This document shows, piece by piece, positions 40,287-64,000 of a stretch of DNA of 64,000 nt. Every line of letters begins with the position of its first letter. The stretch's first letter is position 1. The translations under genes were made by a program, and so were the position numbers. The notes beneath the pieces were generated by a model. That model was not told the DNA's origin. It saw nothing but the letters and a program-made list of their open reading frames with translations, and searched no databases. Origin of the DNA: Edaphosphingomonas fennica (GTDB lineage: Bacteria; Pseudomonadota; Alphaproteobacteria; Sphingomonadales; Sphingomonadaceae); NCBI GenBank assembly GCA_036946415.1, contig JAQIJD010000003.1, positions 107,772 to 171,771 on the forward strand, read 5' to 3'.

Positions 40287-41375
40287 TCACGGATCCTGCG
40301 GGTCGATCGGGTCCACCCGCGCCGACGCCGCCGAGGGGCGGAAGACGACCGCATTGGGCGATATGCGCGCCCCGATCGTGCCCGGCTGATAGCCAAGCTC
40401 CGTGCGGTTGCGCACCCCGAACGCCGGGCTGGCGACAGCGTCGATATGGCCGACGTTGCTGACGACCAGCGTATCCCGATCGAGCGGCGCCCCGAGCGCG
40501 ATCAGCCGGCGCGCGGCGTTGCGCAGGTTGGTGGTGGTATGCCGGGCATAAGGTTCCACCACGATCGCGTCCTCCGGGATGCCGAAGCGTTCGACCAGCG
40601 CCCGCCGCATCTCCATCGCCTCGACATGCGGCGTATCGCGCGGATGGACGGCGCTGCCGCTGACGATGAGGAAGGGGGCCAGCCCCTCCGCAAACCGCTC
40701 CGCCGCCATCCGGACATTGGCCTTGCTGCGCGCGCTGAGCGGCGTGACGGGATCCTCCGGGCCGACCCCCAGCACGATGATCGCGCTGTAGCGGAAGCGC
40801 GACCAGTCGACCTGTCGCGCCTTCGCCAGCGCGCCGGCATTGAAGCGCGGGTCGAGCGGCTCGAAGGCCGCCGCGGCATTCTTGTCGTTGGCGTCGAGCA
40901 GCGCCAGCGCGAGCGACAGGCTGAAATCGCCGGCGACGGCGGGGTCGTCGGCCTGCGCCGTCGCCAGTGCGACCGCATCGGCGACCATCGCGGCGAAATC
41001 GGCGCTGCCGAACGGCAGATCCGATCCGTCTATCATCGGGTAGCGCGGCAGCTTGCCGATGCCATAGACGCGCAGCACGTCGTTCAGGCCGTCGATCTCG
41101 CGCCGCACGTCGTCGCTCGCGCGCCCCGCGCCCGCCGCCAGCATGTCCCGCTCCGCGTCCTGCCAGAGGGCGGCCTCGACGATGCACGGGGGTGCGCCGT
41201 CGCACGCCGCGATCCGCCGCTGCCGCGCGCCACCGGGCAAGGTGCGGCCGTGCAGGCTGGGGAACAGCCGCCCGGCCATCGCCGTCAGTTGCGCATCGCG
41301 GGCCGGCACCGCGCCGGCGGGCACGGCGGCAAGCGCCGCCGCGACCGCCATCAGGGCGATCGCGCGCCTCACCAC
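40287..41375 (-). CDS. Secreted YdcF/DUF218 (ElyC/SanA-like) protein
   Basis: Signal peptide; IIVLG, IVSG..VHP, EA.EM, GIP..AI.VE..ARHTTTN. Confidence 0.8.
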   Translation of the reverse strand: MVRRAIALMAVAAALAAVPAGAVPARDAQLTAMAGRLFPSLHGRTLPGGARQRRIAACDGAPPCIVEAALWQDAERDMLAAGAGRASDDVRREIDGLNDVLRVYGIGKLPRYPMIDGSDLPFGSADFAAMVADAVALATAQADDPAVAGDFSLSLALALLDANDKNAAAAFEPLDPRFNAGALAKARQVDWSRFRYSAIIVLGVGPEDPVTPLSARSKANVRMAAERFAEGLAPFLIVSGSAVHPRDTPHVEAMEMRRALVERFGIPEDAIVVEPYARHTTTNLRNAARRLIALGAPLDRDTLVVSNVGHIDAVASPAFGVRNRTELGYQPGTIGARISPNAVVFRPSAASARVDPIDPQDP

Positions 41376-43894
41376 GCGCGGCTGACGATGAAGCGCACCG
41401 TCCGCCCGAAGATCGGCCGGCCGTAGATCGCATCGCGCGAGGTCTGGCCGTCGAGCTGGTCGGTGCGCGGATTGCCCTCGGTCAGGCCCTTGTCGTTGAA
41501 GACATTGTCGCCGACGACCTGGAACTGGAAGCCGCCCCGCGTCAGCGTGCCGCCCAGTCCGAACGTGTTGAACGACGGCAGCCGGGTGTTGTTGAACAGA
41601 TCGACGTAGCGGCGCCCGGTATATTCGTAGCGGCCGTAGAATTCGATGCGGTTGCTGCCGGTCTCGAACGAGAGGGTCGGGCGGACGTTGCCGAACACCT
41701 TGGGCTCGCGGATGATCTGGTTGCCGTTGACGGCGGACGGATCGGCGCCCGCGGTGTTCGCCAGATTCTTGTATTGCGGATCCTGATAGGTGAACGAGCC
41801 CGAGACGAAGAACCAGCCGACCGGGGCGAACGTGCCGTCCACCTCGACGCCCTTGACCTCGGCCTTGCCGATGAACGGCACCGCCTGATCGTTGCGGCCC
41901 GTCGCCGGGTTGAACGCCACGAACGAGGCATTGAACGGATCGAACTTGGTGTAGAAACCAGTCAAATAGAGGTAATTGCGGCCGAACGACGCCTTCAGGC
42001 CGGCCTCATATTGATCCGCCTTCGTCTTCACCAGCACCGGATTGATGTTGTAATAGCTGCTCGACTGCGGCGGCACCTCGAGGTGCGAGGCGCGGACGTA
42101 GCCGCCGAAATTGTCGCTGACGTCGTAATTGGCGCCGATCGTCCAGTTGGTCGCGGTCGGGCTGCCCTTGCGCGACTGGCGGCCGCCGTCGAAGGCGCGG
42201 ACGGCGTTGTCGGCCAGCGTCGTCGCATCGCCGAGGTTGGCCGAGATCGAGGTCAGGCCGTAGCCGTCGATATGATACCATTCGTGGCGGATGCCGCCGT
42301 CGAGGCGCAGGCCCGGCAGCACTTCCCACGTATCGTTGGCGTAGAGGGCATAGACCGTCGAATCGACGTCGCCCTGGTTGAGCGTGGTGCCGTAGCGCAG
42401 CACGCCGCGATCGGTGACGGAGCCGAGCACCGCCCCGCTCGCCGAATAAGCGACGAGATCGAGCGTCCGCGGCTGGCTGCGCACCTCCATCAGATAATCC
42501 TGGTAGATCGCCTTGTTGCTGAGGCCATATGCCGAGGCGTAGCCGCCGACGCGCAGATCGTGCGTGCCGATGCCCGTCTTGAACTTGCGCGTCACGCTCA
42601 CGTCGCCCTGGCCCGAATAGAAGCTGGAACCGACGCCGCGATACTGGCCCTGCACCACGAGACCCGAGGCGGCATAGGGATCGTAGGCGGTGGCGCCGTT
42701 GGTGCCGGACAGCGCATAGCCGAGGCGCGCGACCGGAGTGGCGGCGGTTCCGAAGGCGTTGGCGGCGGTGCGGAAGCCGGCGGCGAAGGCATTGGCGTCG
42801 ACGGGGTTCGACGTTGAATAGAGCGCGTCGAAGTTCAGCCGGCCCTTGGTGTAGCCGGCGCGCACCGCCAGCTGCCATTCGCCGAACATGCCCTCATATT
42901 GCAGGCCGACATTGCCATATTCCATGTGGCGCCCGTCGGCGAGGTCGCGCGTCTCGCTCCGCGTGACGCCGGCGGCATCGCGATATTTCAGCGTCACGCC
43001 GCGGAAGGCGGGCGAATTGAGCGTGCCGCGGAAGAAATCGATGAACGGATCGAGCGAGACGGACGGATTGCGCGGATCCGCGGTCGGGATCGGCAGGTAG
43101 AACAGATTGTGATCGTTGAGGTAATTGACGCTCAGCCGGATCGAGCCATTGTCCAGTTCATGCTTGATGTTGGCGCGGATCTGGCCGCCGCGGTCGTTGG
43201 GGAAGCCGTTGTCGCGCTGGCCGCCGTCGCGCCTGAGGAAGCCGCCGACCGCATAGAAGGTGCGCGGACCGAGCGGGCCGGACTGGACGGCATCGAGCCG
43301 GTAGAGATCGGTCGTGCCGATCGTCGCCTGCACCTTGCCGCGCGGCGTATCGGTGCCGGTCACGGTCAGATTGTTGATGATCGCCGCCGCCTGGCTGGCG
43401 AAGATCGGCGCCGGGCCACCGCGCACCACCTCGACCCGCTCGGTCATCAGATCGTAGCGGTTGAGGCTGTCGCCGCGGAAGAAGTTGCCGTTGATGTCGT
43501 GGAACAGCGGCAGGCCGTCCTGATGGAAGACCGCATAGCCGTCGTCGGTCGGGATGCCGCGGATGCGGGTGATGTTCTGCACCTCGCCGCCCGTCGCCTC
43601 GACCTGGATGCCGGGCAGCTTGCCGAGCAGATCGGCGAAGTTGAGCGGAGCGAGCCGCTGCACGTCCTCCTGCCCCAGCGAATTGATCGCATAGGACACG
43701 TCGAACCGCCGCTGCCGCCGCGCCGATCCGGTGACGATGATGTCGGATACGTCCGCCTCGTCGGCCGCGACCGGCGCGGTGCCGGCGGCCGCCGTCTGCG
43801 CCACCGCCGCCGGGGCCAGAAGCATCGCTGCCGCACCCAGCGAAGCCAGACCCGCGCTACGCAGCAGCGCGCTCCGAATTGCTACCGTCATCAT
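41369..43894 (-). CDS. TonB-dependent receptor
   Basis: Signal peptide, DIIVTG TonB box, ERVEVVRGG plug, beta-barrel, terminal aromatic W. Confidence 0.92.
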   Translation of the reverse strand: MMTVAIRSALLRSAGLASLGAAAMLLAPAAVAQTAAAGTAPVAADEADVSDIIVTGSARRQRRFDVSYAINSLGQEDVQRLAPLNFADLLGKLPGIQVEATGGEVQNITRIRGIPTDDGYAVFHQDGLPLFHDINGNFFRGDSLNRYDLMTERVEVVRGGPAPIFASQAAAIINNLTVTGTDTPRGKVQATIGTTDLYRLDAVQSGPLGPRTFYAVGGFLRRDGGQRDNGFPNDRGGQIRANIKHELDNGSIRLSVNYLNDHNLFYLPIPTADPRNPSVSLDPFIDFFRGTLNSPAFRGVTLKYRDAAGVTRSETRDLADGRHMEYGNVGLQYEGMFGEWQLAVRAGYTKGRLNFDALYSTSNPVDANAFAAGFRTAANAFGTAATPVARLGYALSGTNGATAYDPYAASGLVVQGQYRGVGSSFYSGQGDVSVTRKFKTGIGTHDLRVGGYASAYGLSNKAIYQDYLMEVRSQPRTLDLVAYSASGAVLGSVTDRGVLRYGTTLNQGDVDSTVYALYANDTWEVLPGLRLDGGIRHEWYHIDGYGLTSISANLGDATTLADNAVRAFDGGRQSRKGSPTATNWTIGANYDVSDNFGGYVRASHLEVPPQSSSYYNINPVLVKTKADQYEAGLKASFGRNYLYLTGFYTKFDPFNASFVAFNPATGRNDQAVPFIGKAEVKGVEVDGTFAPVGWFFVSGSFTYQDPQYKNLANTAGADPSAVNGNQIIREPKVFGNVRPTLSFETGSNRIEFYGRYEYTGRRYVDLFNNTRLPSFNTFGLGGTLTRGGFQFQVVGDNVFNDKGLTEGNPRTDQLDGQTSRDAIYGRPIFGRTVRFIVSRAW

Positions 43895-58844: not shown

Positions 58845-59723
58845 TCATTGGGCCGGCTTCACCAGCCGCGCGCCCTGATAGCCGCGCGCGCCCATCTGCG
58901 CCAGCACGAGCGTGGCGGACGGTTCGTCGGGATAGGGGCCGAGGCGGACGCGGTAGAGGCCGTTCGCCTGGCTAACCTGGCCGCCCACCTCGCGCGCCAG
59001 CCGGGCGGCGCGATCGGGATCGCCATAGGCGCCGATCTGGACCGACCAGCCGGCGGTGACGCTCGTCTGCGGGATCGCCTGCGGCACCACCGGCGGCGGA
59101 TCGGGTGCGCGCGCCAGCATCCGGCGGCGGCCCTCGGCCAGCTCGCTTTCGGTGGCGTACGGCAGGTCGCGCGCCGCCGAACCGGAGCGGAGCGCGAGGC
59201 GATCGGCCTCTGCCGGCACCACCCGCCGGACGCGGACCGGGCCGATGCCGGCGCGGTCGATCCCCAGCATCTGCGCCGCGCGGCGCGACAGATCGATGAT
59301 GCGGTTGGGCACGAACGGCCCGCGATCGTTGACGCGGACGAGGATCGTACGCCCGGTGCGCAGCGAAGTGACCGCGGCATAGCTCGGCAGCGGCATCGTC
59401 TTGTGCGCCGCGCCGACCATGTCCATGTCGTACCGCTCGCCATTGGCGGTGAGACCGCCGTGGAAATCGGCGCCGTACCAGCTGGCGATGCCCACCTCGT
59501 CATAGGCGGGATCGTCGACCGGCGTGTAGGTGATGCCCAGCACCGTATAGGGTTTGCCGATCTTGACCGGCGTATCCGGCACCGGCCCGCGGGGGGCGGC
59601 AGGCGGCCGGGCGGTGGCCGGCGGGGCGGACGTCCGCGGCGGCGGGGCCCGCCGCTCCCCCGCGCAGGCGGCCAGCGCCAGCGCCAGCAGCAGGCCGCCG
59701 CCGGCCCTATTCGACGATCGCAT
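58845..59723 (-). CDS. rlpA: RlpA septal lytic transglycosylase with SPOR domain
   Basis: Lipobox LAAC, GIASWYG, AAHKT.P.PS, VNDRGPF, RIIDLS, C-terminal SPOR. Confidence 0.92.
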   Translation of the reverse strand: MRSSNRAGGGLLLALALAACAGERRAPPPRTSAPPATARPPAAPRGPVPDTPVKIGKPYTVLGITYTPVDDPAYDEVGIASWYGADFHGGLTANGERYDMDMVGAAHKTMPLPSYAAVTSLRTGRTILVRVNDRGPFVPNRIIDLSRRAAQMLGIDRAGIGPVRVRRVVPAEADRLALRSGSAARDLPYATESELAEGRRRMLARAPDPPPVVPQAIPQTSVTAGWSVQIGAYGDPDRAARLAREVGGQVSQANGLYRVRLGPYPDEPSATLVLAQMGARGYQGARLVKPAQ

Positions 59724-60762
59724 CGGCCAGCAGCGTGACGGACAGCGCATAATGGTTGGAGCAATTGTAGGAGAGGATCGGCCGGTAGTTGGTCGTCAGC
59801 AGATAGGCGGTGGCGCCGGGGCCGTCCGGCTCGATCAGCGTCACCATCTCGCGGTCGGCAGGTGCGCGGGCCCCCAGAGGCTGCACGCCCATCGCCCGCC
59901 ATTCGGCCATCGTCAGCCAGCGGCTGTGCTGGGCGTGGACGCGGCCGCATTCGGGCGCGGTGGCGCGCGGGCGGAGCGCTGTGCGATCGATCGCATCGGG
60001 CACGCGCACGGGCACGCCCCACATCACCCCCGGCTTCCACCCGGCATCGGCCAGATAGCGGCCGATCGAGGCGAGCGCGTCCGCCTCGCTGGTCCAGATA
60101 TCGGCGCGCCCGTCCCCGTCCCCGTCCGTCGCGAGGCGCAGGTAGGTGGAGGGCAGGAATTGCGGGAAGCCCGTGGCGCCCGCCCAGCTGCCCTTCAGCC
60201 GTTCGCGCGGCACGCCCTGATCGATCAGCTTCAGCGTCGCGAGATATTCGCCGGCGAACAGCGCCCGCCGCCGCCCGTCGAAGGCGAGGCTGGCGAGGCT
60301 GCGCGGCAGATCGAAAGTGCCGGTGACGGCGCCATAGCCCGTCTCCTGCCCGTAAATGCCGAGCAGGATCGGCCCCGCGACGCCCGTCTGCGCCTGCAAC
60401 CCCGCCAGCCGCGCCGAAAGGTTGCCGAGCTTGGTCTTGCCGCGCTGGATGCGATAGGGTTCGACATGCTTGGCGCGATAGGGCGCAAAGGGCGGCGGCG
60501 GCGCGGGATTGCCCGAAAAGCCGCCCGGCTGCCGCTGGTCGAGCGCGACCACCCGCGGGTTGAAGGTCAAGGTCGCCAGCACCCCGTCGAAGGTCTGCGG
60601 CCGCACCCCCTCCGCCAGCGCGCGCGGGCGGAGCGTCGCGATATACTGGCGCAGCGCCTGATCCTGCGCGGACCATTCGGGCGCGGCCGCCCCCTCCTCC
60701 TGCGCGAAGGCGGGCGCGGCGAGGCACAGGGCAATGGCGGCGGCAAGGCGGAACGATCGCAT
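59707..60762 (-). CDS. Lytic murein transglycosylase (MltB family)
   Basis: GQETGYG, GSWAGATGFPQFLPS, DGDGDGRADIW, YNCS..YAL. Confidence 0.92.
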   Translation of the reverse strand: MRSFRLAAAIALCLAAPAFAQEEGAAAPEWSAQDQALRQYIATLRPRALAEGVRPQTFDGVLATLTFNPRVVALDQRQPGGFSGNPAPPPPFAPYRAKHVEPYRIQRGKTKLGNLSARLAGLQAQTGVAGPILLGIYGQETGYGAVTGTFDLPRSLASLAFDGRRRALFAGEYLATLKLIDQGVPRERLKGSWAGATGFPQFLPSTYLRLATDGDGDGRADIWTSEADALASIGRYLADAGWKPGVMWGVPVRVPDAIDRTALRPRATAPECGRVHAQHSRWLTMAEWRAMGVQPLGARAPADREMVTLIEPDGPGATAYLLTTNYRPILSYNCSNHYALSVTLLADAIVE

Positions 60763-60861: not shown

Positions 60862-60903
60862 GGGCAGGTGGCCGAGTGGTTTAAGGCAGCGGTCTTGAAA
60901 ACC
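60862..60903 (+). pseudogene. 5' half of a tRNA-Ser(TGA), broken just after the anticodon loop (att-like junction)
   Basis: GGGCAGG-TGGCCGAGTGGTTTAAGGC-A-GCGGT-CTTGAAA-ACC, with no variable arm, TTCGAATC or 3' acceptor strand following. Confidence 0.85.
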
Positions 60904-61024
60904 ACTGGAGTTACGTGCCCGACGGGGCGAAAAGGCGAGGACTTCTGCGGGTTTTCCGCTGAATCATGGTTGGGGCCGCAAACGCCCATAAGCATGTCGT
61001 AAGCGGTAAGCCGGCTTGTGGTAG

Positions 61025-61114
61025 GGAAGAGTGTCCGAGTGGTTTAAGGAACCGGTCTTGAAAACCGGCGAGCGGGCAACCGTTCCGTGGGTTCGAATCC
61101 CACCTCTTCCGCCA
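61025..61114 (+). tRNA. tRNA-Ser(TGA), complete, 90 nt, CCA encoded
   Basis: GGAAGAG/CTCTTCC acceptor stem, CCGGT-CTTGAAA-ACCGG anticodon arm, long variable arm, GTGGG-TTCGAAT-CCCAC T arm, GCCA end. Confidence 0.96.
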
Positions 61115-61175
61115 GCCCGTCTCATCTTTTCATTAGCCGCCTCCCTTCCCACGTCTGTGAGAGCAACGGGAGTTA

Positions 61176-61997
61176 ATGATGCCTCACAAGATTTTTCTCA
61201 GCCATAATCATAATGACAAGCCACTGGTAGAAGCGGTCGCGATCAAGCTCGCGTCTATCTTTGGGCAGGACCAAGTGTTTTACGACTCGTGGTCGATTCA
61301 GCCCGGGGACGGTATCATTGATAAGATGGATAAGGGATTGGAGGCGCCAGAGTTTGTATTCTTTTTCGTTTCAAATAATAGTCTTGCTAGTGGTATGGTA
61401 AGATTGGAATGGCAGAACGCGCTTTACTCGGCATCTAAGGGAAAGACTCGGATAATTCCTGTGCGGATTGACAGCAGCGATATGCCCGCAGTTCTTAAAC
61501 AAACCCTATTTGTCGATATGCATACAATAGGACTGGATGCAGCGATTGCGCAGATCGTCAGCGTCACACAAGGAAATGCCTCCTTTACGCCTCAGCACCT
61601 TGGCTTCTCAAACCTGAGCTATGCACGTAACAGCGGAGTTGATCGCTCTGTTGAGATCACAGTCAAGGCGTCACACTTGATGGAGCCAAATCCTCATTTC
61701 GCGCTAGTCGTGGGCAATTCGGAGGGAGAGCTCGAATGGGAGATGGTCAACCGCCAACCCTTTATAGGGGGTTTTAACAAAGATGCGGTTAAAGCCAGCG
61801 GCGGCGGCACCGCTAGTTGCATTTCATTTCGACCTCTTGGCGGAGCACTTACCCCCTCGCATCCTTTGAGGTTCCGAGTGAAGCCGCGCGGCAAGGCGCC
61901 GGTCCAATTCCTTGGGCTCCATCACCAGAAAGGCGAAGCGGAATGGGTGCCAGTTCCGATGGACACAAGCGGTTTCGTAGGCGTCAAGATTTCATAA
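61176..61997 (+). CDS. TIR-domain protein with an unrecognised beta-rich C-terminal domain
   Basis: KIFLSH..DK, VFYDSWSIQPGD.I, FFVS.NSL.S.MV.LEW, IIPVRID; GGGAG RBS. Confidence 0.88.
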   Translation: MMPHKIFLSHNHNDKPLVEAVAIKLASIFGQDQVFYDSWSIQPGDGIIDKMDKGLEAPEFVFFFVSNNSLASGMVRLEWQNALYSASKGKTRIIPVRIDSSDMPAVLKQTLFVDMHTIGLDAAIAQIVSVTQGNASFTPQHLGFSNLSYARNSGVDRSVEITVKASHLMEPNPHFALVVGNSEGELEWEMVNRQPFIGGFNKDAVKASGGGTASCISFRPLGGALTPSHPLRFRVKPRGKAPVQFLGLHHQKGEAEWVPVPMDTSGFVGVKIS

Positions 61998-62347
61998 CGG
62001 CGCCCTGCAAGTTAGGTGTCGGTGGCAGGATCTGCTGATATTAGCCCGCATCCGCGCCCGCCCCCTTCCCCCGCCCAGAGTGCTCTACGATCGCGGCGAT
62101 AATCCTTGCCGCGGCTCGGTCAGATCAAGGCGGTGGTCAACGGAGTTTTCGAGACTGCTGCGAAAGACAGAGGAACCGTGGATTCCTTTTCACCGTGGCC
62201 CTCGTATCCAACCCCTGCTCGCCAGCCCCCACCAACATATTCCGCCTGATAGAAAAATTGCGATGGCGGCATGGCGGTAGAAGGCTACGCATACGTCTCT
62301 GCACAGGGCGACGGCAAAAGCCGAGCCGACGCACAAGGGGACAGACC

Positions 62348-64000
62348 ATGCGTAACCGTTCGATCGCCTTCGGGCTGGCGGCGCTCGCCGCAGCGCCTGC
62401 CGCCGCGCAGCAATTGCCCGAACCCGTCCAGACCCCCCAGCCCGCGGTCGGCCAGGCCGGCGATCAGAGCGGGGACGAGGTGGTCGTCACCGGCAGCCGC
62501 GGCCAGCAGCGGACGGTGACGGACAGTCCGACGCCGATCGACGTGCTGGGCGGGCCGGAGCTGGAGAAGACCGGGCGGCCCGGGCTGCTCTCCGCGCTCA
62601 ACACGCTCGTCCCCTCGTTCAACGTGCCGACCCGCGCCGGCGGCGGCACGTCCACCGTCATCTCCACGGGCGGCCTGCGCGGTCTCAACCCCGATCAGAC
62701 GCTGATCCTGGTCAACGGCAAGCGCCGCCACAAGACGTCGCTCATCAACGCCGTGTCGTCGCTCTACAACGGCTCGGTTCCGGTCGATCTCGATCTCGTC
62801 CCCACCTCGGCGATCGACCATATCGAGGTACTGCGCGATGGCGCCGCCGCCCAATATGGGTCGGACGCGATCGCAGGCGTCATCAACATCATCCTGAAGA
62901 AGCGGACCGACGGCGGCGACGCCAGCGTCACCGCCGGCCAGAATTTCGATCGGTCGGATGGCGAGAACTACCTCGGCCAGGTCGCCTACGGCATGGCGCT
63001 GGGCGATGCCGGCTATCTCGATCTGTCGCTCAACGGCCGCAAGCAGCTCCGCTCCAACCGCGCCATCCCGATCGACCGCAGCATCCAGCTCTACAATCGC
63101 ATCGGCGCGGGTGCCGCAGGCGTGCCCGATCCGCGCGAGGCGACAATCGACCGGCTCGTCACCACCAATTATGGCGCCTTCCCGGTCGAGGGAATCAACG
63201 GCGGCTACAATGCCGGCTACGATCTGGGCGGGGTCGAGCTTTACTCGTTCGGCACGTACAGCTGGCGCGATTCCGAACTGAACTTCACCTATCGCGCGCC
63301 CAACAACGCCGCCTCGCTGCCCGAAGTCTACCCCAACGGCTTCAGACCGCGTCTCAACATCCGCGAGCAGGATTATGAGTTCGCGCTGGGCGCGACGGGC
63401 GATATCGCCGGCTGGAACTGGGACGTGTCGACCACTTATGGCCGCAACCGATCGCGCCAGCAGGGCTACGACACGATCAACGCCTCGCTCGGCCCGAACA
63501 GCCCGACCTCCTTCTACGTCGGCACGCTGCGATCGACCGAATGGGTCAATTCGCTCGACGTGACGCGCGGGGTGCCGGTCGGCGGCGGCAACCTCCAATT
63601 GTCGGGCGGCCTCCAGCACCGGCGCGAGACCTATGCCGTGCTCCAGGGCAGCCCCGGCAGCTATGCCGCCGGCTCCGCTCCGGGCCAGACCTATTCCTAC
63701 ATCAACAGCGCCGGCGTCCGCGTCACGCCGCCGCCGGGCGCGCAGGCGGCGGCGGGCTTCACGCCGGCCGACGAAGGGCGGATCAGCCGCAACAATTATG
63801 CGGCCTATGTCGATGTCGCCTATGATCCCAGCGACCGGCTGACGCTGGGCGTCGCCGGCCGCTACGAACATTATGACGATGCGAGCGGCGATACGGTGAC
63901 GGGCAAGGCCAATGCCCGCTACGCCTTCACCGACTGGGTGGCGCTGCGCGGTGCCGTCTCCAACGGCTTCCGCGCACCGGCGCTGGCCCAGCAAATCTAT
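62348..64000 (+). CDS. TonB-dependent receptor, runs off the right edge
   Basis: Hand translation: signal peptide, EVVVTGSR, SPTPIDV, LRGLNPDQTLILVNGKRRH, IEVLRDGAAAQYGSDAIAGVINIILK. Confidence 0.93.
   Translation, partial: MRNRSIAFGLAALAAAPAAAQQLPEPVQTPQPAVGQAGDQSGDEVVVTGSRGQQRTVTDSPTPIDVLGGPELEKTGRPGLLSALNTLVPSFNVPTRAGGGTSTVISTGGLRGLNPDQTLILVNGKRRHKTSLINAVSSLYNGSVPVDLDLVPTSAIDHIEVLRDGAAAQYGSDAIAGVINIILKKRTDGGDASVTAGQNFDRSDGENYLGQVAYGMALGDAGYLDLSLNGRKQLRSNRAIPIDRSIQLYNRIGAGAAGVPDPREATIDRLVTTNYGAFPVEGINGGYNAGYDLGGVELYSFGTYSWRDSELNFTYRAPNNAASLPEVYPNGFRPRLNIREQDYEFALGATGDIAGWNWDVSTTYGRNRSRQQGYDTINASLGPNSPTSFYVGTLRSTEWVNSLDVTRGVPVGGGNLQLSGGLQHRRETYAVLQGSPGSYAAGSAPGQTYSYINSAGVRVTPPPGAQAAAGFTPADEGRISRNNYAAYVDVAYDPSDRLTLGVAGRYEHYDDASGDTVTGKANARYAFTDWVALRGAVSNGFRAPALAQQIY

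Follow-up and report, generated by a model that had tools for sequence, protein, structure and literature searches.

The gene at positions 61176..61997 (+ strand) of a 64,000-nt stretch of Edaphosphingomonas fennica DNA (contig JAQIJD010000003.1 of assembly GCA_036946415.1, contig positions 107,772-171,771, forward strand; hereafter, the window) encodes an N-terminal TIR domain joined to a predicted β-sandwich tail, and very probably has an anti-phage function, all mechanisms taken together. The gene is horizontally acquired, mobile, and stand-alone. A fuller model, in which the tail acts as a sensor and the same single protein aborts infection by depleting NAD+, we consider reasonably probable. 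On the genomic side, an earlier interpretation made from the letters alone (the sequence-only reading), which proposed a one-gene defense system, is borne out by the enrichment of PADLOC matches among neighboring genes, the lack of a conserved partner, and the presence of family members in an anti-phage hotspot.

Domain organization and catalytic residues

The open reading frame (ORF) specifies 273 aa, or 272 aa from a second ATG at 61179, which is the likelier start because a GGGAG site lies 6 nt ahead of it and only 3 nt ahead of the first ATG (61176), and because the database version of the protein is 272 aa long. Residues 6-126 (61191..61553, + strand) match the Pfam family TIR_2 with an E value of 3.1e-23 and 83 bits, exceeding the curated profile cut-off of 28, and this domain has a TIR fold. 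The Glu that the sequence-only reading had singled out within MVRLEW is E78, which aligns with the Glu at the catalytic position of PdTIR, TIR-NLR, and Cat1. Among 285 of 321 pooled sequences that passed both domain profiles, E78 is conserved in 283 of the full-length members, and the position four residues before it is occupied by Met in 270, Phe in 3, and Trp in 1 (six commonest residues tallied), defining an M74-x-x-x-E78 motif (61395..61409, + strand) with Met at the Trp position of WxxxE. PdTIR, TIR-NLR, and Cat1 carry Trp at this position, and an aromatic residue four before the Glu is reported to be present in all cyclase TIRs (Manik et al., 10.1101/2022.05.07.491051). The Trp-to-Met change thus favors direct NAD+ depletion over Thoeris-type signaling, and the loss of the aromatic residue suggests that the enzyme may be an NAD+ hydrolase yielding linear ADP-ribose (ADPR).

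The remainder of the protein, residues 135-273, is predicted to be all-β, with a putative β-sandwich domain spanning residues ~145-261 (61608..61958, + strand), in which N146, A165, E170-P171, P227, P230, and P261 are conserved and the rest is variable. PADLOC and NCBIfam profiles gave partial matches to the TIR portion and none to residues 135-273, where the sole Pfam trace was a subthreshold hit to GspH (E 0.045), in agreement with the original description of a β-rich C-terminus that could not be assigned. The tail was modeled as a β-sandwich (predicted local distance difference test, pLDDT, 91), its nearest folds being CBM2/CBM3 and complement/macroglobulin domains, with no family matched; Foldseek searches with the tail returned no match at E<=1e-3 in PDB or BFVD, and the best ESM Atlas value for the tail alone (0.78) serves as a lead only. 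All fold matches of the tail were β-sandwiches, and STING, SAVED, cNMP-binding, and APAZ domains were absent from the list, which does not exclude them. Searches with the whole model recovered TIR entries along with mixed two-domain matches (e.g., EF-Tu, with a root-mean-square deviation near 20), which were disregarded. The homodimer prediction scored 0.00, with its controls likewise unfolded, and speaks neither for nor against dimerization. The tail is accordingly best described as a sequence family of its own that adopts, by prediction, the widely shared β-sandwich fold: the novelty proposed for this domain stands at the level of sequence and not of fold.

When the tail profile was searched against 1.84 billion representative sequences, 258 matches were obtained, and classification of the best 150 yielded 84 proteins with TIR plus tail, 54 fragments, and 12 with another N-terminus. 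The latter were not counted as fusions, being mostly remnants of the TIR end or apparent mis-joins, so that the tail looks dedicated to this TIR. Longer fused forms were found in 0 of 545 candidates, and proteins of 477-2000 aa gave no tail match, which is weak evidence. The 2 domains differ in conservation: mean pairwise identity was 55% for the TIR and 25% for the tail across 142 representatives, 49% and 23% across 66 members chosen by the tail profile, and identity to the query was 85% and 49%, respectively, across 118 close homologues. We count this pattern of conserved effector and variable tail in favor of a sensor tail, and the same pattern has been reported for Schlafen-Ig.

With respect to its surroundings the gene is compositionally distinct (GC 0.507, GC at third codon positions [GC3] 0.547, compared with 0.67-0.72 and 0.86-0.91 for four nearby core genes), and 61001-62000 is the kilobase with the lowest GC in the window; the codons described earlier as AT-rich are so relative to the core genes, although the GC of the gene is still 0.507. 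The integrity of the region is supported by a contig of 1,425 nt found in a public sequencing run (possibly of the source sample), which matches 61085-62509 with 0 differences, and by a contig from a second sample, which covers 60881-61113 with 1 difference; together, these contigs bridge the TIR gene and its upstream spacer. In its own genome (81% complete), the gene provides the only TIR_2 match. A sigma-70 scan upstream of the gene revealed no promoter-like site, and among the public sequencing runs no RNA run contained more than 0.06 of the gene's words, so that expression is not evidenced there.

Family distribution and mobility

Database searches identified 1,175 family matches at E<=0.001 among 2,148 candidates, with a length of about 260 aa; the best 120 of the 1,175 are 60-100% identical and nearly all full length. 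From GTDB, 99 stretches were confirmed and 80 were retained as loci, with members assigned by record title to Proteobacteria, Bacteroidota, Bacillota, Spirochaetota, Actinomycetota, and others. IMG/VR contributed 27 loci, several of them redundant, in which the gene is lone prophage cargo, and 3 full-length matches were present among 26 plasmid records. In 71 of 73 loci, the gene has a lower GC content than the DNA flanking it, with a mean difference of 9.4 points. Closer to the query, 40 relatives contained no full-length homologue, with three showing weak TIR-only matches; the single other genome that the genus contains lacks the gene, and tblastn against INPHARED phages gave no match. Short or split genes, and genes interrupted by the end of a contig, make up five of the 80 copies. 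Truncated members or members split into two ORFs were seen in L011, L048, L054, and L022. On three prophage contigs (L088, L095, and L099), the gene is located one or two genes upstream of the terminase small subunit gene (Pfam Terminase_2), a possible further cargo slot.

The family is carried by 10 of 5,426 Escherichia coli genomes, in nine near-identical copies and a divergent tenth, all with both domains. Two of the nine copies were viewed, and both reside in the gpA-gpQ interval of P2-like prophages, with the replication gene on one side and the portal gene, which they adjoin, on the other, and with differing neighbor cargo; this P2 locus is an anti-phage hotspot (Rousset 2022, PMC9122126). 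Alignment of the E. coli P2 copy with the query takes in both domains and extends over 263 residues, at 40% identity. The tenth copy belongs to a lambdoid prophage, where ren and ybcN stand on either side of it.

Defense neighborhoods and the search for a partner

The expectation of the sequence-only reading that homologues would lie near defense genes was upheld. PADLOC matches at E<1e-10 were obtained for 19 of 120 adjacent genes of at least 90 aa, compared with 5 of 147 genes in the control (p=4.6e-4, Fisher test), and at E<1e-40 for 11 of 120 and 0 of 147, respectively; the control consisted of 19 arbitrary Sphingomonadales genome stretches, which are not taxon-matched. The neighbors include genes of DRT4, Tmn, AbiD, type I and type III restriction-modification (R-M), type IV restriction endonuclease, and PDC systems. 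A second neighbor scan, of hand-picked loci, revealed islands with PifA-like, PDC-M62, and Tmn genes (L044), a copy within a type I R-M cluster (L049), and one with type III R-M (L052). A Prevotella defense island (L037:6989-13093) combines DRT4, a different 336-aa TIR_2 protein, the TIR + β-sandwich gene, and a PDC-S31-like gene; the second TIR adjoining the family member there has no tail homology.

The absence of a partner gene, noted originally for the window, where host genes and a tRNA-Ser flank the gene, extends to the family at large. Across the 80 loci, 1,413 genes were called with a composition-based caller that recovered the expected window genes; the commonest adjacent family was an integrase cluster, in 3 of the 80 loci, with every other family found in at most 2, and 37 of the 68 loci having both flanks contain no codirectional gene within 100 bp. 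Models of ThsA, cyclases, and Argonautes produced 0 matches in the 205 neighbors scanned out of the 1,413 called genes, and no cyclase or short Argonaute gene (as in CBASS/Pycsar or SPARTA) is present in the window. Across whole genomes, the SLOG domain of type I ThsA (STALD) reached its cut-off score in 1 of the 50 carriers tested; the type II Macro effector did so in 0 of 50, yet no control genome gave a signal either. In the genome of the query itself, STALD and Macro_2 had no match, but again no control gave a signal, and neither SIR2_2 nor Peptidase_C14 turned up in this 81% complete assembly. The possibility raised earlier that the gene is a left-over subunit of a known multi-gene system is thus not supported: no ThsA, cyclase, or Argonaute match was obtained among the scanned neighbors, and no neighbor is conserved across the loci.

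Relationship to known TIR systems

The best PDB sequence matches to the query TIR are Cat1, PdTIR, TIR-NLR, BtpA/TcpB, and AbTir, and Cat1, PdTIR, BtpA, and AbTir are also among its structure matches. The alignments of PdTIR, TIR-NLR, and Cat1 keep WxxxE, whereas the query family has MxxxE. The partner domains of these TIRs, which we take to be CARF, coiled-coil, and STAND/TPR modules, differ from the query tail. Cyclases of the AbTir type are set apart by the aromatic residue that the family lacks; Thoeris (ThsB) by its companion ThsA effector, not found among the scanned neighbors of the family; TIR-NLR/Avs by a STAND NTPase and repeat domain, absent from a 273-aa protein that matches over the TIR only; and the TIR effectors of CBASS/Pycsar and SPARTA by a cyclase or short Argonaute, neither of which was found in the window or among the scanned neighbors, and the family has no recurrent neighbor.

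The template for the working model is SpbK of the Bacillus subtilis element ICEBs1. With 290 aa (PDB 9phb), SpbK is close to the query in size and likewise unites, in one polypeptide, a TIR (an NADase in SpbK, a putative one in the query) with one accessory domain. The SpbK sensor domain binds the phage portal ring, the TIRs cluster, NAD+ is cleaved to ADPR and N1-cyclic ADPR (N1-cADPR), and the infection is aborted (PMC12847820). SpbK has its sensor at the N-terminus and its TIR at the C-terminus, the reverse of the order in the query, and sequence similarity is limited to TIR residues 4-72 (PADLOC E 8.5e-4; PDB E 0.0027). The protein would work like SpbK but, by the features tested, is outside SpbK, Thoeris, CBASS, Pycsar, SPARTA, and Avs. 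A parallel for the tail is provided by the Schlafen-Ig protein pSlfn5, in which domain swaps have proven the sensor role of a variable β-sandwich at the C-terminus; it is attached to a conserved effector that is a tRNase rather than a TIR (PMC13056530). The best 150 tail-profile matches contained no Schlafen fusion; the two sandwiches were never compared directly.

One-gene TIR defenses have precedents: TIR-V, TIR-VI, as well as TIR-IX have been validated in a screen of 32 E. coli TIR candidates, of which 12 conferred protection when cloned, and TIR-IX and TIR-V are proteins of 280-291 aa triggered by portal or tail-fiber proteins (Wang 2024, PMC11350192). TIR-IX does not belong to the present family, its residues 16-37 being unlike the family's N-terminal TIR, and the cluster-18 primers of the same study bracket a 205-aa ThsB-like TIR and a 258-aa membrane protein on P2-type contigs (L174, L178: 2669-4062). 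The family was thereby set apart from TIR-IX and cluster 18; TIR-V and TIR-VI lie outside this comparison and may be identical with the family, and the other primers were compared by eye, at one locus. Rousset 2022 (PMC9122126) lists a single-gene system #101, “TIR_2,” with 32 occurrences in Table S5B, and the start of the listed sequence is as in the IMG/VR proteins of L094, L097, and L098, identifying it as the same family. In the available parts of that source, system #101 is catalogued only: family motifs are missing from the cloned constructs (Table S2), and the tail carries no domain assignment. Our literature search found no study of the TIR + β-sandwich architecture and no papers for four accession numbers; the DefensePredictor supplements contained no accession or motif match, and the accessible text of the Mordret preprint names TIR in a reference only. 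The family is widespread and catalogued once in print, and we found no experimental test of it.

Proposed mechanism and alternative explanations

Under the model that we favor, an oligomeric phage protein would be bound by the variable tail, and this binding would cluster the TIR domains. Judging from known TIR biology, activation would proceed via head-to-tail TIR assembly, and the clustered TIRs would start Glu78-dependent NAD+ hydrolysis, yielding mostly linear ADPR. Loss of NAD+ would then stop the infected cell, resulting in SpbK-like abortive infection with the domain order reversed. The sensor role assigned to the tail is suggested by its variability together with the analogy to SpbK and Schlafen-Ig, and the same analogy points to a phage protein as the putative trigger. 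More tentatively, with confidence somewhat short of even, we propose that the family may represent a widespread class of minimal one-protein immune receptors, in which a dedicated, fast-evolving β-sandwich, found only on this TIR, recognizes a protein of the phage and sets off a non-cyclizing TIR NADase directly, such that tail swaps would reprogram phage specificity.

Phage detection by bacterial TIR systems is understood in few cases only. The small size of these proteins (260 aa), their independence of partners, their occurrence in many phyla, and the clonable E. coli prophage members make sensing and activation directly testable, and the conserved Trp-to-Met change provides a clear prediction on the reaction product. 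If the β-sandwich is a sensor, it would join Schlafen-Ig as a second example in which a variable receptor for phage, built as a β-sandwich, is fused to a conserved effector.

Several observations weigh against this interpretation. After removal of six doubtful matches (two UvrB-like, one UvrD, one SMC-like, and two partial), the PADLOC enrichment decreases to 13 of 120 versus 5 of 147 (p=0.025). A PADLOC match lies next door in only 17 of the 80 loci, so that most loci are not defense islands, and many copies stand alone between housekeeping genes. The Trp rule was derived from cyclases producing cADPR, 2'-cADPR, and 3'-cADPR and is silent on His-ADPR and N7-cADPR; SpbK itself also produces N1-cADPR (PMC12847820). 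Finally, no more than the 12 of 32 E. coli TIR candidates mentioned above protected when cloned (Wang 2024, PMC11350192).

The alternative that fares best, which we nevertheless regard as unlikely, retains one-gene defense but makes the β-sandwich an oligomerization or auto-inhibition module, with the TIR itself reading the cue, be it a phage protein, DNA, or a metabolite. It draws on the unusually conserved TIR (85% identity to the query, versus 49% for the tail, among the 118 close homologues), on the small invariant set of tail residues (N146, A165, E170, P230, and P261), which could form an interface, and on the finding, which the SpbK authors cite when discussing their results, that TIR proteins of Thoeris bind capsids (PMC12847820). 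A fixed structural role, however, would not predict identities of 23-25% across most of the tail.

Functions other than phage defense appear improbable. A TIR NADase with a selfish role or one in stress, or a factor directed against plasmids, carried in each case by mobile DNA, would fit the many copies found between housekeeping genes or beside integrase, transposase, relaxase, and TraQ genes, as well as the short, split, or contig-end copies, but not the repeated occurrence in the P2 hotspot and in R-M and defense clusters. We consider it comparably improbable that the protein is an orphan Thoeris-like signal producer with its effector encoded elsewhere in the genome. ThsB profiles do match, weakly and over the TIR only (E 1.4e-4), and in one ESM Atlas cluster at 0.96, ThsB_TIR is assigned to 49% of members; however, the neighbor and carrier-genome searches for ThsA and its SLOG domain, and those for SIR2_2 and Peptidase_C14 in the incomplete query genome, argue against a dispersed effector, the aromatic residue of cyclases is lost, and prophages and small plasmids carry the gene by itself. 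CBM2/3 carbohydrate-binding modules (CBMs) use a platform of aromatic residues for binding. That the tail is a true CBM sensing a glycan, such as glycosylated phage DNA or cell-wall fragments, and thereby activating the TIR is very improbable: the predicted tail shares the β-sandwich fold of CBM2/CBM3, but identity is 4-13%, non-CBM sandwiches score nearly equally (BBSome 8.5, TEP1r 7.8, complement C5 7.2), and there is no conserved Trp set, the best position, W257, being Trp in 44%. The protein had no match to a CBM family of Pfam.

A probable tRNA-Ser islet in the window

The gene is flanked by a divergent host SLT_2 lytic transglycosylase gene on the left (59707..60762, - strand), a tRNA-Ser, and a host TonB-dependent receptor gene on the right (62348..64000, + strand), which continues beyond the window; both host genes are outside the system. 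It starts 61 bp past the end of a complete tRNA-Ser(TGA) (61025..61114, + strand), a setting as low-GC cargo that was absent from the sequence-only reading. This tRNA, probably the incoming copy, is of the type found in relatives behind a stranded half, and in the window it is preceded by the 5' half of a different tRNA-Ser(TGA), which ends just past the anticodon loop (60862..60903, + strand), and by a 121-bp spacer (60904..61024, + strand) that by alignment resembles the spacers of tRNA-Ser islets in G014, G007, and G008. Among the tRNA-Ser loci of 19 relatives, these three have the half, a similar spacer, and the full tRNA-Ser; G009 has the half and full tRNA with another spacer, and G017 the same tRNA type. 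The cargo of the slot differs: G008 has a PDC-M48B-like gene (E 7.8e-52), G017 has one for a D12 adenine methyltransferase, and the tRNA-Ser of G001 is followed by an integrase. The TIR gene is likely to be what survives of the cargo in a small islet of this tRNA-Ser kind.

The usual outcome at tRNA integration sites is duplication of the 3' end, from which this islet differs. No displaced tRNA-Ser 3' half was found in the query genome, blastn of the spacer against 300 genomes of the family gave nothing significant, and no element mobilizing the islet was found. An additional ARAGORN tRNA-Ser call at 41293-41382 (- strand) overlaps a gene junction, has no clear T-arm, and is probably spurious.

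The tRNA-Ser(TGA) replacement islet recurs in relatives (window 60862-61114; L145, L146, L148, L147, and L149), its elements being the stranded 5' half, a related spacer of ~120 bp, the complete tRNA-Ser of a distinct type, and low-GC cargo. In G008, the slot (L148:1552-3059) holds the PDC-M48B-like gene together with a 217-aa gene, and in L058 PDC-M48B adjoins the TIR gene. In G017 (L147:1712-4139), the D12 adenine methyltransferase is accompanied by a 376-aa protein without a Pfam or PADLOC match, and the two may constitute an unannotated restriction-type pair.
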